From IMG/VR virus record IMGVR_UViG_3300032046_000022, positions 3,261 to 67,260 of that record: a stretch of 64,000 nucleotides of DNA; one strand, given 5' to 3'. Below are positions 11,458 to 27,227 of the stretch, one piece after another (the stretch's first letter is position 1; each line of letters begins with the position of its first letter). The position numbers and the translations under genes are program-made. The stretch comes from a virus. The notes beneath the pieces were generated by a model. It ran no database searches, was not told the origin of the DNA, and saw only the letters and a list, made by a program, of their open reading frames with translations.

Positions 11458-11471
11458 ACGAGTTTTGGATT

Positions 11472-11826
11472 TTGTGGCGCAGGCATGTGTGCCGGTGGCT
11501 TTCAGTCTGGGTGCTCCATGTAGAGTGGAGGGGCACGCCCGTGCTGATTCCAAGGCTACTGCAATTTCATACCGGCATGGGGTCATGCGATCCCACCTGC
11601 GCCACTCAAGTTGTGGGTGCAGTCCAATGGTGGAGCTAGATAATTCAACAATTAGCCAAATGGTTGAATTGATATCTCACAAGATTGCTCTGGCTGAGGC
11701 GCGTGCCTTACTGCATCCACTCAAGTTGTGGAGACCGTGATGGGAACCAAGCCCCATATAACTGATGCAAGAGGGATACTTGCAGATGACGTTATGCCCG
11801 ATCCAGGACACGGGTCTCCACTCAAG
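11472..11826 (+). ncRNA. Tandem array of three structured RNA units (TTGTGG...CCACTCAAG)
   Basis: Three 10-12 bp closing stems with different sequences but identical termini, internal hairpins, no credible ORF. Confidence 0.55.
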
Positions 11827-12062
11827 AATGCCAGCCGACCGGCAGGAGGATGAGATGACAAGGAAGCTGGATACTGATTACTTGGTTCTGAAGCGGTGTA
11901 CGAAGGAACTTCTCAAATCGTCAAATGCGAGAATGCTCAAGGCCAATCTAGAATTCCTCATGGAAAAGTTTGTGATTCATCCAGACAAGGAATGGCAACG
12001 GGATTTCTGGTCCAAGCGCAAGTAGCCGCCCGAGCCGCCGTAACGAGTGTGAAGGAGGGGGA

Positions 12063-12494
12063 ATGAGAGATTCTGACACAGAATACATTAAGCGAATGGG
12101 GGATCGGATCGCCGAGCTGGAACGCGATCGGCAGATGTACGTCAACTCCTCGGATCGACTTACGGCTCAGGTGAAGGAGCTGGAGGCCACAATTTCCGAA
12201 AAGGACAAGTGCCTATATGAACTGGAGGATGAGATCATTCGTTTACAGCCCATAATAGACGCAGAGAACAAGCGCATCGCGGAGCTGGAGGCCGAGCTTG
12301 CAAAGATCAGGGCGCGAACTTGCAAGGCGTGCGCTCACTGGTACGACGAGTACCACGATGGATTTGCTACCTGCTCCAAGTGGTCCTCCTACTCGTTACC
12401 GGCTGATCCGAGATGCGGCGGTACACACTACGTCAAGACAGGTAAAGATGGATTCTGCTACCTTTGGGCTGAGAAAGAATCGGAGAGCGTATGA
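12063..12494 (+). CDS. Coiled-coil + Cys-rich hypothetical protein
   Basis: RIAELE repeats, CxxC. Confidence 0.55.
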   Translation: MRDSDTEYIKRMGDRIAELERDRQMYVNSSDRLTAQVKELEATISEKDKCLYELEDEIIRLQPIIDAENKRIAELEAELAKIRARTCKACAHWYDEYHDGFATCSKWSSYSLPADPRCGGTHYVKTGKDGFCYLWAEKESESV

Positions 12495-12742
12495 GTCACC
12501 CCTTCATAGTCAAGATCAGTCTAGACAAGGCAGAAGTTCGCATCGCGGGGCTGGAGGCTGAGAATCTTGCCCTAGTGAAGATGCTCAAAAGGTACGAGTG
12601 GCAGTTCTTCGAGGGGGGAGTTGGATATCCCAACGATGAAGAGACTTGTGCTATTTGTGAGGCGAAGCGGAGTGAGGGACATACCGAGGACTGTGCTTAC
12701 AATAAGTTGATGAAGAGTCCTACAGCGAGGGCGGGGAAATGA
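12491..12742 (+). CDS. Hypothetical Zn-finger protein
   Basis: CAIC...GHTEDC. Confidence 0.5.
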   Translation: MSHPFIVKISLDKAEVRIAGLEAENLALVKMLKRYEWQFFEGGVGYPNDEETCAICEAKRSEGHTEDCAYNKLMKSPTARAGK

Positions 12743-12835
12743 GTGAAGGGGAATGCAGCCGAGAAGAACAGGAAACTTTTCAGGCCGAAAATACGCCTGT
12801 CGAATCTAATGGAATTTGAAAAGGAGGATGCCGAG

Positions 12836-13333
12836 ATGAAGATGACTTTTCAGGAATTCACTTTGAAGTATCGTGGGGCGTACAAGAGCGACGGACAACC
12901 ATATGTGTTTCCAGCTGACATCGATGCTGTGGCCGGAAGTACGGGACTCGATAAGGCGCAGATAGTTGAGTGGATTTCGGCGTGGTACGAGATACAAGCG
13001 GCGTATGTCAAAGAGAGAAATTGTATGCCATCTATTAAGGAGATCATTGCCGAGTACAATCGCGCTCACGGAATAGTGGAGCCATCTCCGCCTCCTCCTA
13101 TTGTCCCGATCGCGGTCCCGCCAAGAGATCCGGCCGCGACGGTGGGCACGATGTTTGGCAGATATCAGCCACCGCGCACGGTGCCAACGGGCGTGGTGTG
13201 TTTGGCTCAGCTTACGGTGGATCAGTTTGTGGTGCTTATGCACGAGCTGATGGATCAGCATTCTGCTCCGGTTGTAGACGAGAAGGTCGCGATGCGAGCG
13301 AAATTACAGGCGGCGCTGGCGGCGCTGGAGTAG
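12836..13333 (+). CDS. Hypothetical protein
   Basis: AGGAGG RBS before ATG 12836. Confidence 0.55.
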   Translation: MKMTFQEFTLKYRGAYKSDGQPYVFPADIDAVAGSTGLDKAQIVEWISAWYEIQAAYVKERNCMPSIKEIIAEYNRAHGIVEPSPPPPIVPIAVPPRDPAATVGTMFGRYQPPRTVPTGVVCLAQLTVDQFVVLMHELMDQHSAPVVDEKVAMRAKLQAALAALE

Positions 13334-13377
13334 TAATTTGGACAGTGGAAATCCCTTGGTGCAGATCGGAGAATAAG

Positions 13378-13887
13378 ATGGATTGGTTAAACTGGAAAAG
13401 TATCGCAACAACTCTGGCGCTGGGTGCTTTGGGCGTATGCGGTAATTGGGCGAAAGGAACTTATAACGAGTACAAGAACGTAGTCACCAGTATCAATGCG
13501 CACATGGTCGAGGAGGCGCAGCAGCAACAACAACAAATCGAGACCAGAGCGTTGCTTAAGCAGATCGCGGCGGACATAGGCGACGTGAAGAAGATGACAT
13601 TGACTATCATGGGTGTGGCGAAGGTTCAGAGTGATGGCGGAGACGAGGCGAGCGCTCTCGTCAATCTAAACGGTCGCGCCATGATGTATAAAGAAGGACA
13701 GCGCGTGCGCGTGACTAACATGGTGTCGGCAGAGCAGGAATCTGTGATCGTCAAGATAAATGGCACGTTCACGATGCCAGACGAGGATAAACTTCTGTTG
13801 TTGTCGAAGAAGGCTGGGGCGATGCTTAGTCTCCAGCCGAATCAAGTGGCGAGAGTCAAGCTGGAGCCTGTATCGGGAGAGAAATAA
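13378..13887 (+). CDS. Membrane-anchored protein with RlpA-like double-psi beta-barrel C-terminus
   Basis: N-terminal hydrophobic helix, coiled coil, VRVTN...SVIVKING...LLLSKKAGAML...VKLE. Confidence 0.5.
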   Translation: MDWLNWKSIATTLALGALGVCGNWAKGTYNEYKNVVTSINAHMVEEAQQQQQQIETRALLKQIAADIGDVKKMTLTIMGVAKVQSDGGDEASALVNLNGRAMMYKEGQRVRVTNMVSAEQESVIVKINGTFTMPDEDKLLLLSKKAGAMLSLQPNQVARVKLEPVSGEK

Positions 13888-14551
13888 TGGAGAAATTTTG
13901 GTATCAGTTGGCGTGGTGTCTGCCGCGCCGGTTGGCGTATTGGTGCTTTGTTAGAGTTGCATCTCACGCCACAGCTGGTCGGTGGAGCAGCGAAATTCCT
14001 GACAATGTTTCGATAGTGACCGCTGCTGGTCGGTGGAAGGAATGAGGTGCGATGCCAATAATCAAAATATGTACTGAGGATGGGCGGGAAGTTGCAGTTA
14101 TTGATCCTGAAAAAGTAGGAGAGTGGAAAAAGACGATAAACGTGATTAGGGATGCTTGTGGCGAAGTCTGGGAGAAGGAGGAGAAAGAAAATGATGGTCC
14201 GAGAACTTTGGCTGGCAATTCCGACACGGACTAAGTCAGCAGTCAGATGGGCTGCGCTCGGATTCTTACTTGGACAGCTTATGGGGACGATCAATACGAT
14301 TCTGGCGGGCGTCGCATTGTTCCTTCGACTGAGGTGTGGATTATGATGGAATGTCGCTGGTGTCTGAAGATGGCGGAGACGAGTGGGCTGATAGTCGAGT
14401 TTGGTCGGAAATATCAAAGAAAAAGGAATATCCAAATTTGCGCGCCGTGTAAGATAAAGGCATTCGCAAGGCCGAAGCCGATAGAGTCCTTTCTCGAGGC
14501 AGGTTTGGCTGTGAGTCGGTCCTTCATTATATATAAGGCAGAGAAGACGGC

Positions 14552-15424
14552 GTGAACGCGGAACAGGTAATTTCTGGGCAACCGAGAGCGCATCGTGGCA
14601 CCGGAGGCGAGTGGACTATTCTGTGTCCATGGCATCAGGAGCATTCGCCCAGCTGTTGCGTGAATGTCGACAAGAAGGTTTTCATTTGTCACGGCTGCGG
14701 CGAAAAGGGCCGGCTCACAAAGCTGATCGCGCGTCTTCAAAACATAACGTGGAACGAAGCGGCGCGAATCGCTGATGAGGCTGTTCATTTTTATAGTAAG
14801 GAAATCGAATCAGGAAAAATTCAATTGCCGAAGGAATTCAGCCGCCTCCCTCGCGGTGGACATTTCGGGCAAATTGCTATGAGTTATCTTGCTGGCCGGC
14901 GGATCACCCAGGAGCAAGTGGTCCGGCATGGAATTGGATTTTGCATCACCGGAAAATATGCCTTTCGAATTATCGTGCCGATTCGTCTGAACGGTGCGCT
15001 GGTGAGTTTTGTTGCGCGCGATTTCACCGGCAAAGCGGAGCGCAAGGTCCGCTATCCAATAGGCGCTCGAGCGGCAGAAGCGATTTTCAATTATGATGCA
15101 GCGCTCGCTCACGCGAAAACTGTCGTGATAACAGAAGGCTGGGCGGACGCGCTTGCGGTCGAGCGCGTTATTCAGCGTGATGGAGTTCTTAATTCTTGGA
15201 CTGCGACCGCAATTGGTGGGAAGGAATTGACGATCGAAAAACGGGAATTGTTTCGACAATTCAAAAATTTTTTGATTGTGCTTGATAGAGATGCAGCGCG
15301 TGAGGCGGCACTTATGCGAGAGCAGCTGGATGCTTTTCGCAATGTGGCAGTGCGCATCGTTTCGGTGACGGCAAAAGACCCGGCAGAAGAGTCTGAAGAG
15401 AGTTTGATAACACTTTTGAGGTGA
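14552..15424 (+). CDS. DNA primase (CHC2 zinc finger + TOPRIM)
   Basis: CPWHQEHSPS...CHGCGEKG; TEGWAD; LDRD. Confidence 0.9.
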   Translation: MNAEQVISGQPRAHRGTGGEWTILCPWHQEHSPSCCVNVDKKVFICHGCGEKGRLTKLIARLQNITWNEAARIADEAVHFYSKEIESGKIQLPKEFSRLPRGGHFGQIAMSYLAGRRITQEQVVRHGIGFCITGKYAFRIIVPIRLNGALVSFVARDFTGKAERKVRYPIGARAAEAIFNYDAALAHAKTVVITEGWADALAVERVIQRDGVLNSWTATAIGGKELTIEKRELFRQFKNFLIVLDRDAAREAALMREQLDAFRNVAVRIVSVTAKDPAEESEESLITLLR

Positions 15425-15434
15425 GGGAGGCTGT

Positions 15435-15647
15435 GTGATAGTCGACACGAAAAGTTTGCTGACGCGGCGCGTTGCTGCGGAGTTGTATGGGGTGGCCGCG
15501 CAGGGACTGGATTACTTGATGCGGCGCGGTTATTTGCGTCCGGTTTTTTCGATGGGGCATACGAAATTGTTTTTGCGCCGGGACATTCTCGCTGTAAAAA
15601 AAATGAATCTCCGTCGTGGCCGGCCAAAGCAAAAAAAGGCTGTGTGA
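15435..15647 (+). CDS. Small helix-turn-helix (excisionase-like) protein
   Basis: LLTRRVAAELYGV...RRGYL...RRGRPK; GGGAGG RBS. Confidence 0.6.
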   Translation: MIVDTKSLLTRRVAAELYGVAAQGLDYLMRRGYLRPVFSMGHTKLFLRRDILAVKKMNLRRGRPKQKKAV

Positions 15648-15683
15648 ATTTGTCGAATAATCCGCCGCAAAACTCAGTGAAAT

Positions 15684-15716
15684 AAATGGCCAAAAGTTAT
15701 TTTTTGGCCATTTTTT
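15684..15716 (+). terminator. Rho-independent terminator
   Basis: AAATGGCCAAAA/TTTTGGCCATTT stem plus T run. Confidence 0.7.
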
Positions 15717-15889
15717 GTGTAAAGGTGTGCCCGTAACTGGTTGATTCTTATCAAGATCTGGGACACAAAAAAATGCATCATTTCTGGTGTGTGTTCATGC
15801 ACCTTCTGTGGATCGACACTGTCCGCGAATGCATAAACATTGGAGAAAATAATCCTTTTTATCTGAAAGCATTAGGCGCAAGATAATGG

Positions 15890-16456
15890 TATGAGATACG
15901 AAATACATACAGGGAGGGGGGTGGCGGGAAGCCAAACGAAATAACTCGCGGAAACGCGACCCCAACTGAGGCCGAAAACGGCTGACTGGGGCAACGCCGG
16001 AAGCGGGAAAAAAGAAAGGGCAGAGAGCGCGGTGGCCTCGGCAGATGGTGAAGTCCGGCGGCGAAATTCCGACCGGAGCCAAACTCTCATAAGAGAAAAA
16101 ACCCAGCGGGAAAAGGGGCGGTAAGACGCCAACCGAAAACAAAAAAATCCAGAGCCAAAACAAACGAGACCCCGAAAGCGATGATCCACGAAAGTGGGAA
16201 GCCAGTAGGCAAAATCTCTGAGGCGACGAGCAGACTGAACTGCTTGCAGACCGGTAACAGTCCGGTTACGGACGAAATCTAGGACTCGTGATACTCCATC
16301 CCAGAATAGCAGCGCAGAATCCAAAGCGATTTGAAACTGCGGCACGCGCGAAAAAACGGATCGACGGTAAGATGGACGGGTAGCGAGCGACGGAGAGTAG
16401 AAAAAACTGATGTGGCGAAGACGCGCGAAAGCGCTGAGCCGTCTCTAAAATGAATT
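15890..16456 (+). ncRNA. Candidate large structured ncRNA (about 570-600 nt)
   Basis: No + strand ORF, purine-rich, many hairpins with GAAA-type loops; ends at the first twister ribozyme. Confidence 0.6.
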
Positions 16457-16533
16457 GCAGAGTGGCGGGAAGGAAACGCATTTCCTTTCCGCAAATGCGC
16501 TGGCTCATGGCGAGTCACCGGTCACAAGTCCGG
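16457..16533 (+). ncRNA. Twister ribozyme 1 (circularly permuted)
   Basis: GCAGAGTG-P1 hairpin-AAATGCGC-P3-CCGGTCACAAGTCCGG; A replaces U at the cleavage site. Confidence 0.75.
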
Positions 16534-16542
16534 AAGGAGACT

Positions 16543-17076
16543 ATGGAAAACGAAAAAGTACAGACGCTCGAGGGAACGTTTCGCAAACTGTTTGCTGTGT
16601 CGACGAACTTGCCGCTGAAGCTCGAATGTGATGTGAAGCCAGTGCTGGACGGAAAGATCCGCGAGAACGCTGAGCGGCTCGCTTTCGTCCTGGCCGGCAA
16701 TGCCTATTTTACGATAGAGAATACTCAAAGCGGAAATCGCTTCACGTTCCGCGTGAGCGCGAACAAAAAGGAAAGCGAAGTCACCCATTGGGTCTGTGTT
16801 CTCACCGGACCGGATAATCTTTCCAATTACACTTTCATTGGCTTTATCAAAGCCGGCGAATTCTTCCACAGTCGCAAGGGCGGCATCGGAAACGATGCAC
16901 AGAGCGTTCGAGTTTTTGCTTGGTTCTTCAAGAATCTGAAAGCAAACTCAGTGCCGGAATTCATTTTGTTCTGGCATATGGGGCGATGTTGCCGTTGCGG
17001 ACGTGCTCTTACAGTGCCGGAATCGGTGGCGGCTGGGATCGGTCCTGAGTGCGCCAGCATGGTGTCTGGATTCTAG
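16543..17076 (+). CDS. DUF6011-like Zn-finger protein
   Basis: GRCCRCGRALTVPESVAAGIGPEC; AAGGAG RBS directly after ribozyme 1. Confidence 0.7.
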   Translation: MENEKVQTLEGTFRKLFAVSTNLPLKLECDVKPVLDGKIRENAERLAFVLAGNAYFTIENTQSGNRFTFRVSANKKESEVTHWVCVLTGPDNLSNYTFIGFIKAGEFFHSRKGGIGNDAQSVRVFAWFFKNLKANSVPEFILFWHMGRCCRCGRALTVPESVAAGIGPECASMVSGF

Positions 17077-17149
17077 CAGAGTGGGACCGGTGCTCGACGC
17101 CGGTCTTAATGCGCTGCGCTCATGGTGAGCGCACCGGTCACAAGTCCGG
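17076..17149 (+). ncRNA. Twister ribozyme 2
   Basis: GCAGAGTG-GGACCGG..CCGGTCT-TAATGCGC-TGCGCTCA/TGAGCGCA-CCGGTCACAAGTCCGG. Confidence 0.85.
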
Positions 17150-17160
17150 AGGAGGCTAAG

Positions 17161-17349
17161 ATGAACGCAAAACAGATAAAAGAGATCGCGACGGCGGCGG
17201 CATATTTGAAGTCCGCTGAGGATGAATATTACAAATATCACACCAAGAATAATATGATAGGACTCGCGCTTGCCGATCTTATGAAAAGAGCAAAGCTGAT
17301 CTACGAAGACGCTCTAAAAGGAATTTCGCTTGAGGAGAGCGGTCGATAG
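17161..17349 (+). CDS. Small hypothetical protein
   Basis: GGAGG RBS, between ribozymes 2 and 3. Confidence 0.6.
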   Translation: MNAKQIKEIATAAAYLKSAEDEYYKYHTKNNMIGLALADLMKRAKLIYEDALKGISLEESGR

Positions 17350-17421
17350 CAGAGTGGGTCCGGCGCTCGACGCCGGTCTTAATGCGCGGCTCCATGGTGG
17401 AGCCTCCGGTCACAAGTCCGG
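17349..17421 (+). ncRNA. Twister ribozyme 3
   Basis: Same core with variant P3 GGCTCCA/TGGAGCC. Confidence 0.85.
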
Positions 17422-17444
17422 TTTTTGAAATTGGAGACAAGAAA

Positions 17445-18131
17445 ATGAACGCGAACAATTCTATCATCATCACCGATCGCAACTTGACCACAACCGAAGA
17501 GCAGGCAATTCTCGAAACGGGAATGATGGATCTGGCAGACTTTATGGACACCTTCCAGTATCTGGCCTTTGTGCTTGACGGCTCCGGAAGTATGTTTTGG
17601 GGTATCAATTCAGGCGACGGTCTTAACAAGGTGGAATTGGAGAAGAAGGTTATTCTCCGTTATGCCAAAGATAAGATTGGCGCGAAGGCGGACGGGATGA
17701 AAGTGGCGATCGTCGAGTTTGGCAGCAAGGCCCACATCCATCTTCGTGGCTCCAGTAGTCTGGCGGAAATCGAGGGCGGCGTGAATTTGATCGGGCATAT
17801 GGGCGGCGGAACCAATGCAAGCAAAGGAATCCGCGCTGGCTTGACTCTTCTCAAGAAGGGGAAGGGCATGATTCCGCGAATCATCTTGACGAGCGATGGT
17901 CAGATTCAGGATCTCCATCTTTGTCTCGAAGCGGCAGAACAGGCGAAGAGTGCTGGCGTGATCATCGATACCATTTACATCGGTGGCGGGTCTGAATGCG
18001 ATCACGGGAATGGCGAAATGCTCCGGCGGATCAGTTCAATTACCGGTGGCGTTCACGAGGAGATCACGGGAATGGGTGACTTCGAAGTGAAGTTCCTCAA
18101 GGTTGCGGACCGCATTCTTATCTCCGCATAA
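17445..18131 (+). CDS. von Willebrand factor A domain protein
   Basis: MIDAS DGSGSM, GGTN, LTSDG, IDTIYIG, ITGG. Confidence 0.85.
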   Translation: MNANNSIIITDRNLTTTEEQAILETGMMDLADFMDTFQYLAFVLDGSGSMFWGINSGDGLNKVELEKKVILRYAKDKIGAKADGMKVAIVEFGSKAHIHLRGSSSLAEIEGGVNLIGHMGGGTNASKGIRAGLTLLKKGKGMIPRIILTSDGQIQDLHLCLEAAEQAKSAGVIIDTIYIGGGSECDHGNGEMLRRISSITGGVHEEITGMGDFEVKFLKVADRILISA

Positions 18132-18142
18132 ATCTAATCAGT

Positions 18143-18217
18143 GCAGAGTGGGCTGGAGCAATCGCGCTCCGGCTTAATGCGCTGCGCTCGTGGTGAGCGC
18201 ACCGGTCACAAGTCCGG
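18143..18217 (+). ncRNA. Twister ribozyme 4
   Basis: Same core, P1 GGCTGGAGC/GCTCCGGCT. Confidence 0.85.
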
Positions 18218-18228
18218 AGGAGACTAAG

Positions 18229-18948
18229 ATGAACGCAAAGATGATTTTGAATAAATTGTATTCGTCTTTTTCCAAACAGGCTGACAGTGTAGAGGCGCGA
18301 TGTAGCGCTCTGGTTCAGGCTGTTGGAATTATGACGGGCGTTTGTGGAAGCCTGAAAGTTCTTCAGCTGCGCAATCCAAACGCGATGTACGTTCCTGCGG
18401 ACTCTGAAAAGCTGTGGGATCGCGCGAACAAGTGCAAGGCGCAAGCGATGGGCACAACATTTATTCACGAGAAAGAAGTCTCGCTCAGAATGTGCTTGCT
18501 TACACTTCAGAAGATGGCTGCGAAGGTGAGTCCGCCAAATCTGGAAGATTTTATTGCTAGGCTGGAAGTGAAACAGAAGGCGAAAGCAGAGAAGGTGGCG
18601 CGGGATGTAATCGCAAAAGCAAAGCGCACATCTCCGCGAGCGCCCAAGGTGGTCGGCTCGACTGCGAGTCCACGCTCTGTGAAGTCTACGGGGCATCCGT
18701 CTAATCTGGCTCCGCTTGGTCCAGACGGCGTGCCGCAATGGCGTCCTGGCTCGAGCGCCGATATTATTACTCAAGTCCTTTTCTCGAAACCGCAGATCAC
18801 GAAAGAAGAAGTGGTTGCGGCGGTAACGGGAAAGTTTCAGTCTTCCAATTTGGTTTGTCGCGTCATGATGGTCGCAGGATTTCTGATCAAGTTCGGAAAG
18901 CTGCGCCGCGTGAAAGTGAACGGGAAACCTGGGTGGGAGAGAATCTAA
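18229..18948 (+). CDS. Hypothetical protein with C-terminal winged-helix-like domain
   Basis: C-terminus resembles that of ORF 25539-26189. Confidence 0.55.
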   Translation: MNAKMILNKLYSSFSKQADSVEARCSALVQAVGIMTGVCGSLKVLQLRNPNAMYVPADSEKLWDRANKCKAQAMGTTFIHEKEVSLRMCLLTLQKMAAKVSPPNLEDFIARLEVKQKAKAEKVARDVIAKAKRTSPRAPKVVGSTASPRSVKSTGHPSNLAPLGPDGVPQWRPGSSADIITQVLFSKPQITKEEVVAAVTGKFQSSNLVCRVMMVAGFLIKFGKLRRVKVNGKPGWERI

Positions 18949-18953
18949 TCAGT

Positions 18954-19027
18954 GCAGAGTGGGCTGGAGCAATCGCGCTCCGGCTTAATGCGCGAGCGGG
19001 CTGTCCGCTCACCGGTCACAAGTCCGG
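18954..19027 (+). ncRNA. Twister ribozyme 5
   Basis: Same core, P3 GAGCGGG/TCCGCTC. Confidence 0.85.
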
Positions 19028-19045
19028 AAAATGGAGACAAAGAAA

Positions 19046-19525
19046 ATGACAAAGGAAACGATCGAAGGAATGCTCACGCGAATCGCTTTGGAATTCGACC
19101 GAGATTATCTCAATGAAATTGGGTTGGTGATCGGAGTCAAATTCACGAGATTTTTTAGTGACTGGCGGGAAATGCAGTACGGGCTGTGTGGTGTGACGTT
19201 TGGGATGTATGACGGGAACACGCGAGTCATATATTTGAATGCTTATTTCCACAAGATGCTGGAGCATGGTTTTTTTCTTAGTGAAGTAAAAGGTGTGATT
19301 TTTCACGAGTTGTGCCACGGCGCTCTTTTGAATTCGCTTCAGCCGATTCGACTTGGTATGTATCAGAGTGGACCAGCCGGTGATCATGGACCGGATTTCG
19401 AGGCGCTCGAGCACCGGTATTCCGATTATATTCGCAAGGATCGATTGCAGGCGATGATGCCCGATATTCTGGGCTGGATGCGCCATAACGTTCCGGCGAA
19501 ATTGCGAGAGGAGAGTGGTCGATAG
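19046..19525 (+). CDS. SprT-like zinc metalloprotease
   Basis: IYLN...VIFHELCH...DHGPDF. Confidence 0.75.
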   Translation: MTKETIEGMLTRIALEFDRDYLNEIGLVIGVKFTRFFSDWREMQYGLCGVTFGMYDGNTRVIYLNAYFHKMLEHGFFLSEVKGVIFHELCHGALLNSLQPIRLGMYQSGPAGDHGPDFEALEHRYSDYIRKDRLQAMMPDILGWMRHNVPAKLREESGR

Positions 19526-19598
19526 CAGAGTGGGACCGGTGCTCGACGCCGGTCTTAATGCGCTGCGCTCATGGTGAGCGCACCGGTCACAAGTCCGG
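19525..19598 (+). ncRNA. Twister ribozyme 6
   Basis: Identical to copy 2 over 74 nt. Confidence 0.85.
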
Positions 19599-19615
19599 AA
19601 AACGGAGATAAAAAA

Positions 19616-19870
19616 ATGCCTTTGCTTAGAAACATGACGGATGCTCAGGTGATTGAACGGATCAGCGGTTTGGTTCGGTATGTCAGTAATTGGGTCGACG
19701 GTGAATTGGTGCTTAATGGTTTCGACGGCGCGTATAAAATCGACATCGAAGTAAAAGTGCAGGGAAAGAAAAACGTTGAGCATCTTCGCATGCTGGGTGG
19801 TGTTCTCCAGGAGATCAGTCTGATGATCGACCGGCGTGAGGGATTTCAGCCGAGCGAAGAAGAACTATAA
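19616..19870 (+). CDS. Small hypothetical protein
   Basis: GGAG RBS after ribozyme 6. Confidence 0.6.
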   Translation: MPLLRNMTDAQVIERISGLVRYVSNWVDGELVLNGFDGAYKIDIEVKVQGKKNVEHLRMLGGVLQEISLMIDRREGFQPSEEEL

Positions 19871-19875
19871 GTATA

Positions 19876-19948
19876 GCAGAGTGTGACCGGCGCTCAATGC
19901 CGGTCTTAATGCGCCGACTCAAGGTGGGTCGACCGGTCACAAGTCCGG
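19876..19948 (+). ncRNA. Twister ribozyme 7
   Basis: Same core, P3 CGACTCA/TGGGTCG. Confidence 0.85.
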
Positions 19949-19971
19949 ATTTTGAAATTGGAGACAAGAAG

Positions 19972-20373
19972 ATGGCGACAATTATAGTTGAGTGCGATGC
20001 TTGCGGAACCAAGAACAAGATCGAGGATAGCAAAGCACAGACGGCGCGCTGTGGGCGTTGCCGGAATCCGTTGTTGGACGCGGTCCAAGAACAGCTTGGT
20101 CTTTTTGACGATGACGAAGACGAAGACGAAGACGAAGACGAAGACGAAGACGAAGACGCCGCTGGCGCTTCTCAGCCGCTGGGCAAGATCTTTGCCGGCG
20201 GGACGCTCCCTCATGGGACGAAGTTCACCGGCGCTCAGCCGACGGCGGCGGATGTGATGATGGATTTGTTTGGCGCTTCTGGTCTGAATACTCTGTGCAA
20301 GATTCCGTGCAAGGATTGCGGGCGGATGTTTATCGGACCAGTGACTCAGACGCTGTGCGCGAATTGTGAGTAG
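19972..20373 (+). CDS. Zn-ribbon protein with acidic (DE)n linker
   Basis: CDACGTKN...CGRC; DEDEDE tract; CKDCG...CANC. Confidence 0.65.
   Translation: MATIIVECDACGTKNKIEDSKAQTARCGRCRNPLLDAVQEQLGLFDDDEDEDEDEDEDEDEDAAGASQPLGKIFAGGTLPHGTKFTGAQPTAADVMMDLFGASGLNTLCKIPCKDCGRMFIGPVTQTLCANCE
20113..20157 (+). repeat. (GACGAA)7 coding microsatellite
   Basis: Seven perfect hexamers plus GAC. Confidence 0.95.
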
Positions 20374-20506
20374 AGCGTGCCGGCGCAGAAGGCCGGTGTG
20401 TGTTATGTTTGTGGGAAGATGAAAGAAAAGAAGATGGCGACATCGGCTATGCGCAACTTCTGCGCTCTCCGGTTGGCCAAGAATATGTTTGGTTCTGCTT
20501 AGTTTT

Positions 20507-20579
20507 GCAGAGTGGGACCGGCGCTCAATGCCGGTCTTAATGTGCCGACTCAAGGTGGGTCGACCGGTCACAAGTCCGG
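20507..20579 (+). ncRNA. Twister ribozyme 8
   Basis: Same core, TAATGT variant giving G-U in P2. Confidence 0.8.
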
Positions 20580-20594
20580 AAAATGGAGACGAAG

Positions 20595-21107
20595 ATGCAT
20601 TTTGTAATAGGAGAGTCTGTGCAGTTTAGAGGCCGGCAGGGAAAGGTTGTTCTTGGCGTGGTGTTCTCAGCAAATAGATGTCGCTCCAAATATATGGTTC
20701 GAGCGGGGTCGGGCAAAGTTTATAACGTTCCGGATCGGATGCTTGAATCTGTTCTTGGTGTGAGTGGCGCTGAAGCCGAGAAGATGGTGACGGCTGGTCT
20801 TGATTTTATGGATCGGCGTGCTGAGTTATTCAGGGCGAGTCGTAAGCGAATGGGCGAGTGCATGAAGGATCGCACTGACAAGCTGCGCTCCGGAATGGCT
20901 GTGCAAGTTTATTCGCTCGGGAAATGGAGCCGGACAGAGATCGTTCGCGTTCTTCCGGAAGTTGGCAAGGTTACAGTTCTGAATCCAGCAGCGATTCTGT
21001 ATCATCGTGAGCGGATAGATTCGGCTCTCGACGGTCTGATTTCCAGATTGATGAAGAAACGGAGAGACACCATCACGGTGCTTGCGAATAGAATCTGTGT
21101 GATGTAG
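20595..21107 (+). CDS. Hypothetical protein with two SH3/KOW-like beta domains
   Basis: FVIGESVQF...GVV and LRSGMAVQV patterns; GGAG RBS. Confidence 0.55.
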   Translation: MHFVIGESVQFRGRQGKVVLGVVFSANRCRSKYMVRAGSGKVYNVPDRMLESVLGVSGAEAEKMVTAGLDFMDRRAELFRASRKRMGECMKDRTDKLRSGMAVQVYSLGKWSRTEIVRVLPEVGKVTVLNPAAILYHRERIDSALDGLISRLMKKRRDTITVLANRICVM

Positions 21108-21180
21108 CAGAGTGGGACCGGTGCTCGACGCCGGTCTTAATGCGCTGCGCTCATGGTGAGCGCACCGGTCACAAGTCCGG
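21107..21180 (+). ncRNA. Twister ribozyme 9
   Basis: Identical to copies 2 and 6. Confidence 0.85.
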
Positions 21181-21191
21181 AGGAGACTAAC

Positions 21192-21476
21192 ATGAAGTCA
21201 GTGGCAAAAGGCTACACACGAGCTGAATTCGAGCGCGTGGAGTTGGACGGCTGTGAGTTTGATATTGTCGTGGATTATGCGGCGGCGTGTGTGGATGATT
21301 TTGACATTATCGAAGTGAAATCCGTGGGCGGTTATGGCGTGCCGTGCTCTCTGCGGGGTCTCAAGATCGGAGAGCCGCTCGAGCGATGGGTGGACCGCCA
21401 TCACGCTGGTGTGATTATTGAACTGGCCCAGAACCATCTTGCCGAGCACAGAGAAGACTGGCGATGGGATTCCTAG
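21192..21476 (+). CDS. Small acidic hypothetical protein
   Basis: GGAGGAG RBS after ribozyme 9. Confidence 0.6.
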   Translation: MKSVAKGYTRAEFERVELDGCEFDIVVDYAAACVDDFDIIEVKSVGGYGVPCSLRGLKIGEPLERWVDRHHAGVIIELAQNHLAEHREDWRWDS

Positions 21477-21546
21477 CAGAGTGGACCGGTGTTGAGTGCC
21501 GGTCTAATGCGCCGACTCAAGGTGGGTCGACCGGTCACAAGTCCGG
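21476..21546 (+). ncRNA. Twister ribozyme 10
   Basis: Same core, P1 GACCGGT/GCCGGTC, P3 as in copy 7. Confidence 0.85.
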
Positions 21547-21554
21547 AGGAGACT

Positions 21555-21980
21555 ATGGAAACAGAAAAGTTGAACACGGTGAAATCTCTTTTCGATGTTT
21601 TGAGTCAACTTTTTACGATGCTCGAAATCAAGGTCGATGTGCGAGTGAATTCTGACGACGCAGTCGAAATCGACGGCTGGCTTTGGGCGTATGTCGATAA
21701 GATGACAGAGAGAACGAATGTTATTGGTGGCGTGCGCACGAATTTGTTGTTCGATTGTTTTGTGATTGGTGTTACGAAATATTCGTCGGCCACGCGCTGG
21801 TGTCCGGAAGAATTGGACAGAGCTGAATTGGACAGAGTTCACGGTTCGTATAATGCTGCAAAACGAATGGCTTCGCTGTATTTCGAAAGCAGGGTCGACG
21901 GCGCGCTCGAGCAAGTTGAGTTTGGTCAGTCCGAGATGGATAAGATTGAGATTAAAAAAGCGCTTGATGAGCTACTGTGA
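21555..21980 (+). CDS. Hypothetical protein
   Basis: GGAGGAG RBS after ribozyme 10. Confidence 0.6.
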   Translation: METEKLNTVKSLFDVLSQLFTMLEIKVDVRVNSDDAVEIDGWLWAYVDKMTERTNVIGGVRTNLLFDCFVIGVTKYSSATRWCPEELDRAELDRVHGSYNAAKRMASLYFESRVDGALEQVEFGQSEMDKIEIKKALDELL

Positions 21981-21993
21981 TGAGGGCGCTTAG

Positions 21994-22128
21994 AGGAATA
22001 GAAGGATGCTTGCGGAAAATCCTGATTTGGTTATTGCGTTCCATAGTAATATATCAGCATCAAAAGGAACGCAGAACTGTATCAGCCAAGCGGCGGCGCT
22101 TAGAATCGTGGTCGAGATTATTGAATAG
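21994..22128 (+). pseudogene. C-terminal fragment of a SLOG/DUF2493-like gene
   Basis: RNRRMLAENPDLVIAFHSNISASKGTQNCISQA...VEIIE*, preceded in frame by TAG. Confidence 0.5.
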
Positions 22129-22197
22129 CAGAGTGGAGGCTCCAGCAGATCATCTTCTGCTGTCCTTTAATGCGCTTAGAGCCGGTCACAAGTCCGG
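22128..22197 (+). ncRNA. Twister ribozyme 11 (no P3)
   Basis: GCAGAGTG-P1 (CAGCAGA/TCTGCTG)-TAATGCGCT-TAGA-GCCGGTCACAAGTCCGGC. Confidence 0.8.
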
Positions 22198-22370
22198 CCA
22201 GCAAGTGTGGGCGAACGCGGGCCAAATCCGCAATCGCCAAATCGCTGTCTCCAACAGCGCATTCCGGTGACTGAGCAGGAACATCGGGAAATCGCGTCGA
22301 TTTCAAGGCTCGCGCTTCACCGCGCCGCCATTTCCTGCTCACAAATGCGCTTGTAGAAAAGGAGACTAAA

Positions 22371-22913
22371 ATGGTGAGTGCGACATTTGTGGGTTGTTTC
22401 AAGATTTTGCGGGAAGGTTTGCGTCGCGAGTTGACTCAGCGGGGCCATTTGGTCACGCATTATTTCGAGTCGATGGATGGGCAACCGCTCGCTCTCAATT
22501 TCCAGAATAGCGCAGATGACACAATCACTGTGTTCTGGGGACCGAAGAACAATCGACACAAGCTGGTTGATCCAGACTCGAAGATGCTGGCTGATGCAAT
22601 CGAAAAATCTCTTGACGAAAAGGTTCAGCCTCCGCCGGCGATAAAAAGATCGTCACCGCAACAAGCCGCTGCGCCAAAACAGAAACCGCAACAAGCCGCT
22701 GCGCCAAAACAGAAACCGCAAGGTGGTGTTTTTGTAACAGATGCTGATTATGCCGAGCTGCAGAGATTGCGCTCGATGGCCAATCACGGCGTTTGGATCG
22801 GCAATGCTGTTTATGCCGCGATGAAGGAAGAGATGCGCATCGGCTATGTCCCGATGGAAGCGCGGCAGAAAATAAACACTTCATTTGATAGGTTATGGAG
22901 GATGATGGCGTGA
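22371..22913 (+). CDS. Hypothetical protein with a 10-aa tandem repeat
   Basis: AAGGAG RBS; PQQAAAPKQK x2. Confidence 0.6.
   Translation: MVSATFVGCFKILREGLRRELTQRGHLVTHYFESMDGQPLALNFQNSADDTITVFWGPKNNRHKLVDPDSKMLADAIEKSLDEKVQPPPAIKRSSPQQAAAPKQKPQQAAAPKQKPQGGVFVTDADYAELQRLRSMANHGVWIGNAVYAAMKEEMRIGYVPMEARQKINTSFDRLWRMMA
22655..22721 (+). repeat. 30-bp tandem duplication
   Basis: ACCGCAACAAGCCGCTGCGCCAAAACAGAA x2 plus a partial copy. Confidence 0.9.
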
Positions 22914-24658
22914 TATTAACCTATGATTCTGAGGCGAATATTTTCAAGTTGGAGTCGGCTTACGAAGATAGGGAGATTCCGAAAGCCGCGAATTTTATTT
23001 GGAACAGACTTGTCGAAAAACACTGGGCGACGCAAGATCTCTCGAAGGCGAGAATGCTCGCCCAGTATGCTGATTCGGCTTGTCAAGTTGTACTGAAGGC
23101 CGCGCTGGAAAAACAGGCGGCGATTTTAGAGTTGTCCTCCGCTACATCTGCAGACCTTTCGATTCCTGCTCCTGATGGCCTGGAGTATTATGGCTTTCAG
23201 AAGGCAGGAGTTGCATTCGCTTTGGAGAAGAAGCGCGTTCTGATCGCTGACGAAATGGGTCTTGGTAAGACGATTCAGGTTATTGGCGTTATTAACGCGC
23301 TTCAGACGATTCGGAAAGTTCTCATAATTACCAAGGCATCACTGCGCCTGAATTGGCTTGGCGAAGTCCGCCGTTGGCTTACGAGGAGCCTGTCAGTGGA
23401 ATTGGCGTACAGCGCGATCTGGCCAGTGGCAGATATCATCATTATAAATTATGATATTCTTGTGCGCCACAAAGCGCAGATTGACGCTGTGGATTGGGAT
23501 CTGCTCGTGATGGACGAGTCCCATCTTATCAAGAATCCGAAGGCGCAGCGCACTGCAATGGTTCTGGGGCGCGTTCCTAAAAAACCTGACGAGCCGAAGG
23601 TGTCGGCGATTCGCGCTCGATATGCGATAGCGACAACGGGATCACCAATCGAAAATAGTCCGATCGAGATTTTCGGGATTCTGCGCTATTTGGATGCGCG
23701 GTCGTGGCCGAGTTTTTGGAGTTTTGTCCAGCGCTATTGCGATGCGCACAATGATGGATATGGCTGGGATTTTTCTGGTGCAAGTAATAAGGAGGAGTTG
23801 CAGCGCAAGCTGCGAGAGACGGTCATGATTCGCCGGTTGAAGCGCGACGTTCTCAAGGATCTGCCGGAAAAGCAATATCAAGTGATAGAGATTCCGGTCG
23901 AAGACAGCGGTTTGAAAAAATTTCTTGCGGAAGAATTGAGCGAGTGGAATAGGAAGACTGCCGAATTGCAGACGCTGCGCGAAGCGGTCAAGGCTGCAAA
24001 ACTGGCTGGAAACGAAGATGCCTATCGCCAGCTGGTGGCCGCGCTCGCTGAGGGTTTGAAAGTGAAGTTTGAAGAATTCAGCGAGAAACGCCACGAAACG
24101 GGCGTGCGAAAATTGCCGTATGTGATAGATTATTTGCAGGAAATTATGGAAGAGGAACCGCACAAGGCGCTTGTCTTCGGACATCATCGCGACGTTCTCG
24201 AGCGGCTCCATCGCGAATTCAAAAATTCGCTTCTGATTCACGGTGGCATTCAACCAGATAAGAGGCAAGCAATAGTCGACCGGTTTCAAACTGACGAAAG
24301 TGTGGGTCTGTTTTTTGGCTCGATTGGAGCGGCTGGTGCCGGTCTGAATATGACGGCGGCGAGTCATGTGATTTTTGTAGAAGAAGATGTGGTTCCAGAG
24401 CGCATTCGGCAAGCCGAAGATCGCGCTCACCGAATTGGTCAAAAGAATTCAGTTCTGGTGACTCACCTTGTGCTCGAAGGTTCTCTGGATGCGCATCTCG
24501 CCAAGATTGCGGCTGGGAAAGCAGCCAATATCGAGGTGATTCTGGGGACCAATAACAGCCAATTTGAGCTAATCGAAACCGGTTTGTGGGGAAACCTATG
24601 CGCCGATCCTAAAAAACCCAGCCTTGCCCAGCAGGAGCGTGATGTATGCCCATTTTGA
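22895..24658 (+). CDS. SNF2-family (HARP/SMARCAL1-like) helicase
   Basis: LIADEMGLGKT, DESH, TGSP, QAEDRAHRIGQ. Confidence 0.92.
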   Translation: MEDDGVILTYDSEANIFKLESAYEDREIPKAANFIWNRLVEKHWATQDLSKARMLAQYADSACQVVLKAALEKQAAILELSSATSADLSIPAPDGLEYYGFQKAGVAFALEKKRVLIADEMGLGKTIQVIGVINALQTIRKVLIITKASLRLNWLGEVRRWLTRSLSVELAYSAIWPVADIIIINYDILVRHKAQIDAVDWDLLVMDESHLIKNPKAQRTAMVLGRVPKKPDEPKVSAIRARYAIATTGSPIENSPIEIFGILRYLDARSWPSFWSFVQRYCDAHNDGYGWDFSGASNKEELQRKLRETVMIRRLKRDVLKDLPEKQYQVIEIPVEDSGLKKFLAEELSEWNRKTAELQTLREAVKAAKLAGNEDAYRQLVAALAEGLKVKFEEFSEKRHETGVRKLPYVIDYLQEIMEEEPHKALVFGHHRDVLERLHREFKNSLLIHGGIQPDKRQAIVDRFQTDESVGLFFGSIGAAGAGLNMTAASHVIFVEEDVVPERIRQAEDRAHRIGQKNSVLVTHLVLEGSLDAHLAKIAAGKAANIEVILGTNNSQFELIETGLWGNLCADPKKPSLAQQERDVCPF

Positions 24659-25009
24659 ATAGGTCTAGAACGCTTTCCGGCAAGCGCCGAAAGCCTAAAA
24701 TTCAGTCTTGCCGGCGCTCGTCGGCCGCAACCAAGTCGGCTCAGCCGTTGGTTCAAAAAATCTACGGAAAAAGGGAGTCTCCGCCTCGGCCATACGAAGG
24801 GATGGTGCCGGCTCAACTCGGAGCGCTTGGTCCGAATGTTGCATTTTACTTTCCGGAAGGACATCAGTTTCTCACTGGGGTTGTGATTTACAATGGCTCC
24901 GGAAATACGTTTTGTCGGCTCCGCTGCATAAAGCCACTTGCCACAACAGAGTCGATCGAAGAGCTGACTCTGTGCTCGAGTTCTTGGGTTATGGTCAAAC
25001 GGGAGGATT

Positions 25010-25495
25010 ATGATGCGCAAAAGGAGAAAGATGCCAGAGTTTCAAGTTCAAAAATATGCCGAGAATCTGGCATGGAAGGCTTTCCTGAAAAGTAAAGATC
25101 CGGCGCTCGAGTTGCAGGATTTTCTTCAGGAGGCGCGGATGGTTTTGATTAAAGCGGCGCGTGAATATAACTTTGATCGCGGCGCGAAACTGAGCAGCTA
25201 TTCCATCGCCAAGCTGATTGGTCGATTCAAACATATGGAGCGTGAGTTTCGACATCTGCCGCAAACTATCGCCGTGGATCAGTTGCCGGAGGTCAGCAAG
25301 GTGCCTGATAATTTCTGGCTGCGCGTGGTCGACGTGCTGGCGTCGAAAGGAAACGAAAAGGCGAAGGCGCTGCTGCGGACGCTTTTGAATCACTATCGCA
25401 ATTTGAGTCGATGCTCGCTCGCGGACTTGCAACGAGTTTCCGGAATGAGTGATAAGGATATGCGCGCCGCTCTGTTCCAGCTTTCGAGATATTGA
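25010..25495 (+). CDS. Phage sigma-70-like factor (region 2)
   Basis: LQDFLQEARMVLIKAAREYNFDRGAKLSSY resembles sigma region 2; C-terminal HTH. Confidence 0.7.
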   Translation: MMRKRRKMPEFQVQKYAENLAWKAFLKSKDPALELQDFLQEARMVLIKAAREYNFDRGAKLSSYSIAKLIGRFKHMEREFRHLPQTIAVDQLPEVSKVPDNFWLRVVDVLASKGNEKAKALLRTLLNHYRNLSRCSLADLQRVSGMSDKDMRAALFQLSRY

Positions 25496-25522
25496 AAAGA
25501 TTTTTCGCCAAACCATTTTATT

Positions 25523-25533
25523 TGGGGATAATA
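25523..25533 (+). promoter_or_regulatory. TGGGGATAATA promoter motif, copy 2
   Basis: GATAAT ends 7 nt before ATG 25539, which has no RBS, suggesting a leaderless mRNA. Confidence 0.55.
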
Positions 25534-25538
25534 ATAAC

Positions 25539-26189
25539 ATGGGCGTTCAAAAGATAAGTTGTTGCATGTGCGCAAAAAACTTTAACACTCCAGAGCATGT
25601 GAACTCTGGCAAGATTTTTATACCATCCATGGTTTGTAAGGATTGTTATGAGCGGCTGGCTCGCGATCCGCACATGTGCTTTGGCAAACAGCATCCGAAA
25701 GGACTCCCGCTCGCGGACTTGAGCGAGGAACAGTGTGCGCGGTGTCAGGATTATAAGGTGTGTGTGAAGTGGCCCCAAAACCTAGTTGTTTGGATTCCAC
25801 CAGCAGAAGAAGGAGACTCTGAAATGGCTGACAAGAACAAGAAGAAGGAAAAGAAGACTCCGCCGCCGGAAGCGGCTGGAAAGAAGAAGCCGGTGGCTGC
25901 TGCAACCGGAAAGAAGAAGCCGGCGGTGACGGCGAAAGAGAAAAAGCCGTTTGTGAAGTTTGCGGAGGATCTGCAATTTCGCGACGGGACGAGCATTGTG
26001 GTGGTCATGAAGGCGCTCACAGCGAAACCGGAGATCACTTTGGAAGAGCTGTGCAAGACGATCGAGGCCTCCGGCGTGAAGTCCGACAACGTCAGAGCCA
26101 GGGCGCTGAAGGGATTTTCCTACATGAAGGATCGCGGACTCATGGGCAAGAAGATCGAAGACGACAAGATCATCTTCTACAAAAAGTGA
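25539..26189 (+). CDS. Cys-rich + Lys-rich + winged-helix-like DNA-binding protein (internal start 25824)
   Basis: CxxC motifs; GKKKP repeats; AGGAG RBS before internal ATG. Confidence 0.55.
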   Translation: MGVQKISCCMCAKNFNTPEHVNSGKIFIPSMVCKDCYERLARDPHMCFGKQHPKGLPLADLSEEQCARCQDYKVCVKWPQNLVVWIPPAEEGDSEMADKNKKKEKKTPPPEAAGKKKPVAAATGKKKPAVTAKEKKPFVKFAEDLQFRDGTSIVVVMKALTAKPEITLEELCKTIEASGVKSDNVRARALKGFSYMKDRGLMGKKIEDDKIIFYKK

Positions 26190-26209
26190 CGCTCGCCGGT
26201 CCTCTCTTG

Positions 26210-26250
26210 AATGGGCGCGATTCTATTTGTTCGAGTCGTGCCCATTTTTG
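26210..26250 (+). terminator. Rho-independent terminator
   Basis: AATGGGCGCGATTC/GAGTCGTGCCCATT stem plus T run. Confidence 0.7.
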
Positions 26251-26267
26251 CTTATAGGAGATTTGCC

Positions 26268-27227
26268 GTGTATATTCTTGGTGCGGGGATGGCTGGCTGC
26301 TTGGCTGGTGTTTTGAATAGTGATGCCATTCTGCTCGAACAGGCTCCCTCCAAAGGAGAAATTCCAACCCACAAGGCTCTGCTTCGTTTCCGCTCTGATA
26401 AGATCGGGAAAATATGCGCTATCAATTTCGACAAAGTGGCAGTGAAAAAGTCCATCTATTATGATGGCCGCGAATACCGGACGCCGGATTTGCGGCTTGT
26501 CAATCTGTATTCGAAAAAGGTGGCTGGCGGCTATTATGCGCGATCCATCTTGGACTTGAGCGATGTGGAGCGCTATATTGCGCCGGAAGGTTTTCACGAG
26601 ATGCTTTTGAAGCGCTGCGCTGGGCGCATTCATTACGGCTGCTCGGTGACGGCGCTGAATCGGGAAGTGATACGGCTGGCAGACACTCGTGATCCGGTGG
26701 AGCGCGTGGGAGAGCCTGTGATTTCCACTTTGCCGATGCCGATTATGTGCAAGATTGTTGGGCGGGATCATGCTGTGGAGTTCTGGCAGGAATATATAAA
26801 TGTGATCAGATACCGCGTGAAAAACTGCAATATCTACCAGACCATGTATTATCCAGATCCGTCGATTGCGATATATCGTGCCTCAGTCTTGCGCGATCTG
26901 CTCATTATTGAAGCTGTGAAGAACGCGCCGAACGATGAGGCGGCGGACCAGCTTGTTTTCGAAAGTCTGGGAATAAGGAAAAGCGATGTCGAGCTGATGG
27001 ACTATTCAAAACAGATGGGCAAAATCGCGCCGGTGCCGGAGGACTTTCGAAAGGACACCATCCTAAACTTGACAATAAGATTTGGCGTGTATTCGCTTGG
27101 CAGGTTCAGCTGCTGGCGAAACGTTCTGCTGGACGACGTATATGATGATGCGCTCAAGATAAGAAGTTTCATCGACCGGCCGATGTATGATGTCGTGCTG
27201 GCCTCGCACGAAGGAGGAGTCGCGTGA
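26268..27227 (+). CDS. FAD-dependent Rossmann oxidoreductase
   Basis: ILGAGMAG, ISTLPM, YSLGRFSCW. Confidence 0.8.
   Translation: MYILGAGMAGCLAGVLNSDAILLEQAPSKGEIPTHKALLRFRSDKIGKICAINFDKVAVKKSIYYDGREYRTPDLRLVNLYSKKVAGGYYARSILDLSDVERYIAPEGFHEMLLKRCAGRIHYGCSVTALNREVIRLADTRDPVERVGEPVISTLPMPIMCKIVGRDHAVEFWQEYINVIRYRVKNCNIYQTMYYPDPSIAIYRASVLRDLLIIEAVKNAPNDEAADQLVFESLGIRKSDVELMDYSKQMGKIAPVPEDFRKDTILNLTIRFGVYSLGRFSCWRNVLLDDVYDDALKIRSFIDRPMYDVVLASHEGGVA

Follow-up and report, generated by a model that had tools for sequence, protein, structure and literature searches.

A tandem array of Twister-P5 ribozymes among the small genes of a tailed phage and its predicted consequences for their messages

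What could eleven ribozymes of a self-cleaving class do when they are placed, one after another, between the small genes of a single phage gene block? The question is raised by the DNA stretch analysed here (the window), which comprises 64,000 nucleotides (positions 3,261 to 67,260) of IMG/VR record IMGVR_UViG_3300032046_000022 and is a contig of a tailed double-stranded DNA (dsDNA) phage; the record is 84% complete. Between positions 16456 and 22197 of the window, twister ribozymes alternate with short open reading frames (ORFs). An original prediction, made from the letters of the window, set the limits of this block at 16493 and 22168, which are the first and the last of the cuts predicted below, and proposed that gene units excised between successive cuts carry ends fit for the ligase RtcB, making circular mRNAs possible. 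Processing of a long transcript into single-gene linear messages appears to us the likely function; circles do not.

Identity and covariation of the ribozymes

Using Rfam cmscan at the gathering threshold, we found 11 matches to Twister-P5 (RF02684) in the window, all on the plus strand and all within 16456–22197. Each of the 11 copies is full-length (model positions 1–58) and 71–78 nt long, and the scores range from 39.8 bits (twister 1) to 46.7 bits, against a cut-off of 37.6. A more permissive Rfam scan of 10000–30000 revealed no further twister; the same Rfam search of the whole 67,260-nt viral record returned the 11 window copies and no others, and none of 14 control genomes searched in the same way for Twister-P5 was matched. 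With 11 copies in 5.7 kb, the density of the array is the highest among the records examined, as is its number of copies.

The Type-P5 class of twisters was reportedly described by Roth et al. in 2014. The window copies share with this class the core (GCAGAG.G, UAAUGC-GC and GGUC.CAAG), as well as P1, P2, P4 and the pseudoknots T1 and T2, which are present and covarying. In the 11-copy alignment, GCAGAGUG, AAUG, GC, and CCGGUCACAAGUCCGG are invariant, and all copies fold into the P2-P1-P3-P4 arrangement as their minimum free energy (MFE) structure. The optional P3 is absent only from copy 11, which forms the 5′ end of no unit. As a feature of their own, the window copies have P1 and P3 that are closed hairpins, and they differ from the Type-P5 twisters in that 10 of the 11 lack the P5 stem enclosing the ends. 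The P5 stem is described as optional in the twister class (PMC5408937), so its absence does not exclude class membership. As judged from sequence and structure, the 11 copies are real members of the Twister-P5 class, and site-specific self-cleavage, leaving 5′-OH and 2′,3′-cyclic phosphate ends, is predicted for them.

The lack of P5 was apparent from flank-to-flank duplexes, which in 10 of the 11 copies were no better than those of shuffled sequences. The only exception was copy 10, with a flank duplex of −8.8 kcal/mol compared to −4.0 kcal/mol (sd 1.8) in shuffles. The upstream flank of twister 10 pairs, within 21461–21560, with the downstream Shine-Dalgarno region; the modelled pairing could be either a P5-like stem or a means of sequestering the ribosome-binding site.

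A covariance model built from the 11 window copies recovered these copies, 6 copies in L063 (the locus of the closest relative of this phage, described below) and 12 copies in three unrelated phage loci. The covariation alignment contained 29 copies from 5 sources; it had been fitted to the model, a procedure biased towards the structure. Standard pairs filled 95.8% of the alignment cells, compared with 72.0% in column shuffles and 32–42% with slid partners, and the margin over these controls is large despite the model-fitted alignment. Double changes, affecting both sides of a pair, were present in 19 of the 26 pairs, including 17 of the 21 pairs of helices P1–P4; the proportion of paired cells was 100% for P2, 94.8% for P1, 96.9% for P3, and 98.1% for P4. 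According to the description of the class in PMC5408937, pseudoknot T1 joins L1 with L4, while T2 joins the GC of L2 with L4. In our alignment T1 was paired in 98.8% of cells, with double changes in two of its three pairs, and T2 in 83.3%, the T2 mispairs arising because rows with a 4-pair P2 shift the columns. Thus, the covariation of P1–P4 and T1 reveals selection at the RNA level.

Guided by homology to characterised twisters, we put each cut 5′ of the conserved AAUG (for the env22 twister, PMC5408937 gives the scissile bond as that between U5 and A6); two positions were adjusted by eye, since AATG is present in the P1 loop too. The base preceding the cut (N−1) is U in 10 of the 11 copies and A in copy 1. 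The predicted cuts, given with the features below, delimit ten units of 614, 273, 795, 811, 570, 351, 631, 600, 367, and 663 nt. The 5′ end of each unit is AAUGC (AAUGU in unit 8), followed by GC, P3, and P4, and the 3′ end is GCAGAGUG, followed by the P1 hairpin and a U. The original prediction had described both ends accurately, save for the variant in unit 8, and the 5′-OH and the 2′,3′-cyclic phosphate that it assigned to them are the chemistry expected of a twister cut.

Junction layout and related arrays

The features of the block and its immediate surroundings, in window coordinates, are as follows (percentages in the gene lines are amino acid identities to ORFs of L063).

15684–15713: terminator-like hairpin, preceding the leader
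15714–16455, plus strand: ORF-poor leader upstream of twister 1, purine-rich and T-poor from ~15880; nothing matched in Rfam
16456–16533, plus strand: twister 1, predicted cut after 16493; long P1; N−1 is A
16543–17076, plus strand: gene 1, 177 aa; C-terminal DUF6011 motif; phrog_20259
17075–17149, plus strand: twister 2, predicted cut after 17107; identical to twisters 6 and 9
17161–17349, plus strand: gene 2, 62 aa; no family
17348–17421, plus strand: twister 3, predicted cut after 17380
17445–18131, plus strand: gene 3, 228 aa; VWA domain; 58% identity to L063 6242–6943
18142–18217, plus strand: twister 4, predicted cut after 18175; 5′ half and upstream flank the same as those of twister 5
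18229–18948, plus strand: gene 4, 239 aa; no family; 45% identity to L063 7030–7704
18953–19027, plus strand: twister 5, predicted cut after 18986
19031–19525, plus strand: gene 5, 164 aa; alternative start at 19046; no family
19524–19598, plus strand: twister 6, predicted cut after 19556
19616–19870, plus strand: gene 6, 84 aa; no family
19875–19948, plus strand: twister 7, predicted cut after 19907
19972–20373, plus strand: gene 7, 133 aa; zinc-ribbon N-terminus (58% identical to L063 7791–8150) and acidic repeat
20374–20502, plus strand: decayed junction; P1-like hairpin (74%), then a copy of the gene 7 leader and start, AAGAAGATGGCGAC, then an ORF; no ribozyme core left and no Rfam match
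20377–20502, plus strand: 41-aa ORF within the decayed junction
20506–20579, plus strand: twister 8, predicted cut after 20538; AAUGU variant (G-U in P2)
20583–21107, plus strand: gene 8, 174 aa; alternative start at 20595; no family
21106–21180, plus strand: twister 9, predicted cut after 21138
21192–21476, plus strand: gene 9, 94 aa; no family
21475–21546, plus strand: twister 10, predicted cut after 21505
21555–21980, plus strand: gene 10, 141 aa
22006–22128, plus strand: 40-aa ORF after gene 10, with no ribozyme between
22127–22197, plus strand: twister 11, predicted cut after 22168; lacks P3; bulged P1
22371–22913, plus strand: first post-array gene, 180 aa; 31% identity to L063 9423–9998
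22895–24658, plus strand: SNF2 helicase, after gene 22371–22913

The junctions are built in a uniform manner. At 6 of the 10 junctions the first two bases of the ribozyme are also part of the UAG stop codon of the gene before it, and at the remaining 4 a gap of 3–10 nt separates stop from ribozyme. On the downstream side, 10 of the 11 copies are followed by a start codon 3–23 nt after P4, with a GGAG-type Shine-Dalgarno sequence; the Shine-Dalgarno site begins 0–12 nt after P4 and abuts it in five copies. The leaders fall into three classes that recur behind different copies and reach into the first codons. Twisters 2, 6, and 9 are identical, twisters 4 and 5 have an identical 52-nt 5′ half that includes the flank, and 5′ half types and 3′ half types of the twisters combine as mosaics. 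The block is probably a cassette region, where genes would be gained and lost as whole units by means of ribozyme-plus-leader modules.

Several minor features were seen in and after the block. A GAC/GAA codon repeat at 20107–20166 encodes the acidic run of gene 7. A 173-nt untranslated stretch lies directly 3′ of twister 11; in it, a remnant at 22329–22351 resembles the 3′ strand of P1 plus AAAUGCGCU of twister 1 (83%), is located just upstream of the ribosome-binding site of the 22371 gene, and has no P4 behind it. That gene contains an exact 30-nt tandem duplication (22655–22714).

Relatives of the helicase were sought in IMG/VR, and 50 of the 63 loci found were searched for twisters. Among these 50 records, above-cut-off twisters were found only in that of the closest relative (L063 in record G001; helicase 51% identical). 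In L063 the slot is the same, and six twisters occupy it, bordered by primase/HTH genes and the helicase; its flanking genes are syntenic with those of the window at 31–54% identity. The VWA gene, gene 4, and the zinc-ribbon gene are common to both arrays, with ribozymes at equal junctions, while the other cassettes differ. An equivalent ORF-poor stretch (L063 5131–5695) precedes the first twister of the relative; both leaders are ~600–700 nt long, with no alignable conservation between them. P4 is CCGG/CCGG in all 11 window copies and of the CAG/CTG or TAG/CTA type in all six L063 copies. P4 is thus uniform in each genome and differs between the two, and a copy is more like the others in its own genome than like the copy at the corresponding position in the other. 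This pattern indicates concerted evolution within each genome, by gene conversion or by re-seeding of the copies time after time.

The same design is found beyond this pair. In 48 records that had been picked for the same P4 16-mer, and are therefore a biased sample, 35 contained at least one above-cut-off Twister-P5, and 9 had 3–8 Twister-P5 matches at E ≤ 0.001. The order of stop codon, twister, Shine-Dalgarno sequence, and start codon was observed in three of these nine, IMG/VR phage records unrelated to the window, where such layouts span 4–6 consecutive small ORFs on the same strand. A strict motif scan of IMG/VR gave at least 119 stretches, and among the matches listed five loci had 3–5 on the same strand. 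An array on the minus strand of an unrelated 35.6-kb phage record (L247; G064:C1:14000-21000) consists of twisters with P2 of the GGU/ACC or GGG/CCC type instead of GCA/UGC, and without P3. In this locus a different twister subtype makes up the same architecture.

Predicted processing of the transcript and fate of the excised units

We consider it likely that the array serves co-transcriptional self-cleavage of a polycistronic transcript, which would yield a leader RNA, ten single-cassette mRNAs with a standard structured 5′ end and a hairpin-capped, cyclic-phosphate 3′ end, and a downstream message. The identity, placement, and covariation of the ribozymes and the conservation of the layout, all described above, carry this interpretation. 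Block 16456–22197 would then be an operon of accessory genes punctuated by ribozymes, situated within the replication module of this tailed dsDNA phage. A single plus-strand transcript would begin within 15714–15880 and cross the array, and each twister would fold locally and cut itself as it emerges; no distant partner is required for folding, because P1 and P3 are closed hairpins. The expected products are a leader RNA of ~600 nt, ten one-gene mRNAs (two of them with an extra small ORF), and a message for the next gene and the helicase. In its 5′ part, each mRNA would have a 5′-OH and the compact 3′ two-thirds of a twister (P3, P4, and T2), with the start codon 3–23 nt further on; in its 3′ part, GCAGAGUG, the P1 hairpin, and a 2′,3′-cyclic phosphate would come right after the stop codon. 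Each cistron would probably receive its own standard, context-insulated ribosome-binding module as well as hairpin-capped ends of unusual chemistry, and its stability and expression would presumably be uncoupled from those of its neighbours. RiboJ-type insulators act in a similar way, a ribozyme upstream of the ribosome-binding site stripping the upstream context and leaving a 5′ hairpin; they are engineered and belong to another class, whereas the window twisters are natural and stand before nearly every gene.

That cleavage takes place in vivo, and that it affects stability and translation, would be expected from the literature on the class, on hammerhead clusters, and on twister reporters. 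The closest precedent is provided by the prophage hammerhead clusters of Perreault et al. 2011, in which, as reported there, phage genes of variable identity, singly or in short blocks, have ribozymes on their flanks that are read as processing long transcripts into single-gene mRNAs (PMC3088659). Likewise, in the window several same-strand ribozymes of a self-cleaving class flank single genes in phage DNA. The differences are that the hammerheads belong to another ribozyme class, that the examples named in that paper have 2–3 ribozymes per cluster compared to 11 here, and that the hammerheads are reported to cleave in vitro and in E. coli (PMC3088659), whereas the window twisters are known from sequence alone. 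A role in transcript processing has been proposed for twister too, in an account that describes the role of self-cleaving ribozymes in bacteria and phages as largely open (PMC6765202). As for the 3′ end, in human cells the 2′,3′-cyclic phosphate is described as limiting removal of the upstream fragment of Tornado, an engineered system considered below (PMC13622603). The window copies thus enlarge a known ribozyme family, and their kind of setting is known as well; what is noteworthy is the density of the array, its regularity, and its conservation in a diverged relative. With ten short cassettes, one ribozyme type, and a conserved stop-ribozyme-ribosome-binding-site layout that is kept in the relative and has the same design in unrelated phages, the array makes an unusually clean natural test case.

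Several points weigh against processing into single-gene messages. Two units have two ORFs each and one junction (20374–20502) has decayed, so a ribozyme per gene is not obligatory. A sigma-70 scan upstream of the array found no promoter. A search for sequencing runs matching 16300–22400 returned no RNA run. A ribosome at the overlapping stop codon would sit on the ribozyme in its 5′ part, in possible competition with folding. Finally, in hosts with RNase J a 5′-OH can mark an RNA for decay, as with glmS, in the decay of whose mRNA RNase J1 is involved; the direction of the effect on stability is uncertain.

In a rival reading, cleavage is mainly a signal of decay or timing: the 5′-OH and the loss of the triphosphate would shorten the life of the accessory mRNAs and separate the replication genes downstream. 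The array does head a unit that runs into helicase, ThyX, and DnaE, and cleavage by the glmS ribozyme is described as controlling mRNA decay (PMC6765202). We nevertheless find this reading unlikely, for the structured P3/P4 domain with which a cut RNA would start and the P1 hairpin with which it would end look protective, not exposing, and one ribozyme would suffice for separation, which leaves eleven unexplained. Another possibility is that the 75–100-bp ribozyme-plus-leader modules have their main role in DNA, as recombination scaffolds or selfish repeats, RNA cleavage being secondary. The identity of copies 2, 6, and 9, the 52-nt 5′ half with flank shared by copies 4 and 5, the mosaics of half types, the P4 type that is uniform per genome in the window and in L063, the different cassette content of these two phages within syntenic flanks, and the presence of decayed copies would all suit such a role. 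A pure DNA repeat, however, would not be expected to keep the core and pseudoknot and to show compensatory helix changes, and we think this reading quite unlikely as the primary explanation; it is also compatible with transcript processing and not exclusive of it.

The remaining rivals concern the ends of the units, for which the original prediction had proposed stable circular or end-clamped mRNAs; our checks added nothing in favour of either, and several results are contrary. A 5′-OH and a 2′,3′-cyclic phosphate are left by any self-cleaving ribozyme and are no pointer to circles. Circular RNA expression by means of twisters and RtcB (Tornado) is said to go back to Litke and Jaffrey in 2019. 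The chemistry of the unit ends does suit RtcB, whose substrate preference had been given correctly (PMC3458531), and the engineered precedent that had been invoked is sound: as reported, endogenous RtcB circularises Tornado inserts, and in E. coli a circular mRNA gave 1.5-fold more GFP (PMC12628768, PMC13622603). With P1 and P3 self-contained and an invariant core, every unit also has compatible twister halves at its ends; P2-type end pairing is seen in the linear MFE structure of 4 of the 10 units (weak evidence either way), and RtcB is common in prokaryotes, being present in 10 of the 14 control genomes. Yet joining head to tail refolds a complete twister at 10 of 10 junctions (−32 to −39 kcal/mol), as the prediction itself had anticipated, and with twister cleavage measured at 1–10 per min (PMC5408937) a circle would re-cut. 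In cyPhyRNA-seq, adapters joined on by RtcB are reported to be lost again by cleavage if an active ribozyme is kept in the fragment, and the twister 3′ fragment is described as having a buried 5′ end (PMC8782182). An end-holding or ligation stem outside the ribozyme, which Tornado is described as requiring and as having by design (PMC13622603), was found beyond shuffles in none of the 10 units. The stop codon and the Shine-Dalgarno sequence abut the ribozyme, so ribosomes in translation would undo the folds at both ends. No RtcB (PF01139) and no PF09414 ligase was found in the record, in agreement with the earlier remark that a host enzyme would be needed, and RtcB was likewise not found in the 10 other array-bearing phage records (0 of 11 with the window record); PF09511 had no match in the record and none in the control genomes either, which makes that search uninformative. 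In its account of the hammerhead clusters, PMC3088659 mentions that spliced and circular products were considered and neither was detected (data not shown). A literature search, with Roth 2014, Weinberg 2015, and supplements outside its scope, turned up reviews and engineering papers in addition to Perreault 2011 and found no paper on natural twister arrays making circular mRNAs, and a paper on a high-throughput twister assay (PMC11662667) does not mention phage, tandem, or operon. Taken with the chemistry, these findings make it very unlikely that host RtcB joins the excised ends into exonuclease-resistant circular single-gene mRNAs. A non-covalent clamp, in which the two twister halves of a unit reassemble and protect the termini without ligation, is highly improbable. 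The halves are complementary through P2 and T1, and the claim of complementary ends stands as far as their compatibility goes; the pairing itself amounts to only 3–5 intermolecular pairs in 9 of the 10 units, worth ~−3 to −4.6 kcal/mol over the separate folds (at the level of secondary structure). Moreover, each half pairs equally well with its just-cut partner or with the half of any other unit, and ribosomes at the stop codon and the Shine-Dalgarno sequence would displace the pairing.

Apart from stable circles, a small transient circular fraction of units is possible. One can imagine linear and circular forms of the cassettes turning into each other in a cycle, in which the mRNA is closed by host RtcB or by the reverse reaction of the twister and opened again by the rebuilt ribozyme; we give this only a very slender chance. 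If true, a fraction of each single-gene message would be endless and shielded from exonucleases at any moment, and Tornado would have in the array a counterpart from nature, through which cassettes might perhaps also be moved as RNA. In viroid-type circles, alternative folds keep the ribozyme inactive; unlike these, the window ribozyme folds locally and strongly (MFE). The excision itself is similar: in viroids, satellites, and retrozymes, according to PMC7761336 and PMC4918200, ribozymes cut monomers with split-ribozyme ends out of a transcript that is multimeric or repeat-flanked, and these are circularised by a host ligase, so that the circle holds the ribozyme once more. Those RNAs are described as non-coding and as replicating or retrotransposing, whereas the window units are protein-coding phage mRNAs. 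Tornado resembles the window in its twister-flanked insert, in cuts that leave RtcB-joinable ends, and in a circular mRNA that is translated in E. coli (PMC12628768, PMC13622603). As described, its ribozymes are thrown off, and what remains is an engineered stem in imitation of RtcB substrates (a 47-nt scar; PMC13622603, PMC12628768), whereas the window units retain two halves that rebuild an active twister and have no such stem. As a finding on circular mRNA, the array adds little: the chemistry is generic, the idea is in print for hammerheads, and the sequence features are contrary.

Genomic surroundings

The slot of the array lies between the primase and the SNF2 helicase, and the genes around it also include ThyX and a fusion of DnaE with a uracil-DNA glycosylase (UDG). 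Downstream phage genes encode the large terminase (TerL), portal, MuF-like protein, and major capsid protein (MCP). The array itself consists of small genes, most of which belong to no family; the DUF6011, VWA, and zinc-ribbon proteins are the exceptions. No tRNA was found.

Searches for a host were of little help. The helicase had a single match among genome contigs, at 36% on a 3-kb contig of a Clostridia metagenome-assembled genome, which does not pin down the host, and the portal had no match among genome contigs. The exact P4 16-mer occurs there in at least 120 stretches from many phyla and is uninformative for the host. Compared with isolated phages, DnaE reached at most 34% identity, and a twister copy gave no blastn match.

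Two proteins encoded elsewhere in the window have a composite structure. The 1265-aa product of 30654–34451 joins a DnaE-type polymerase III alpha subunit to a C-terminal uracil-DNA glycosylase domain. The MuF-like head protein (48383–50068) has a C-terminal Pfam ATLF-type domain (E 4e-14), as in the MuF-fused toxin-like domains of phages.

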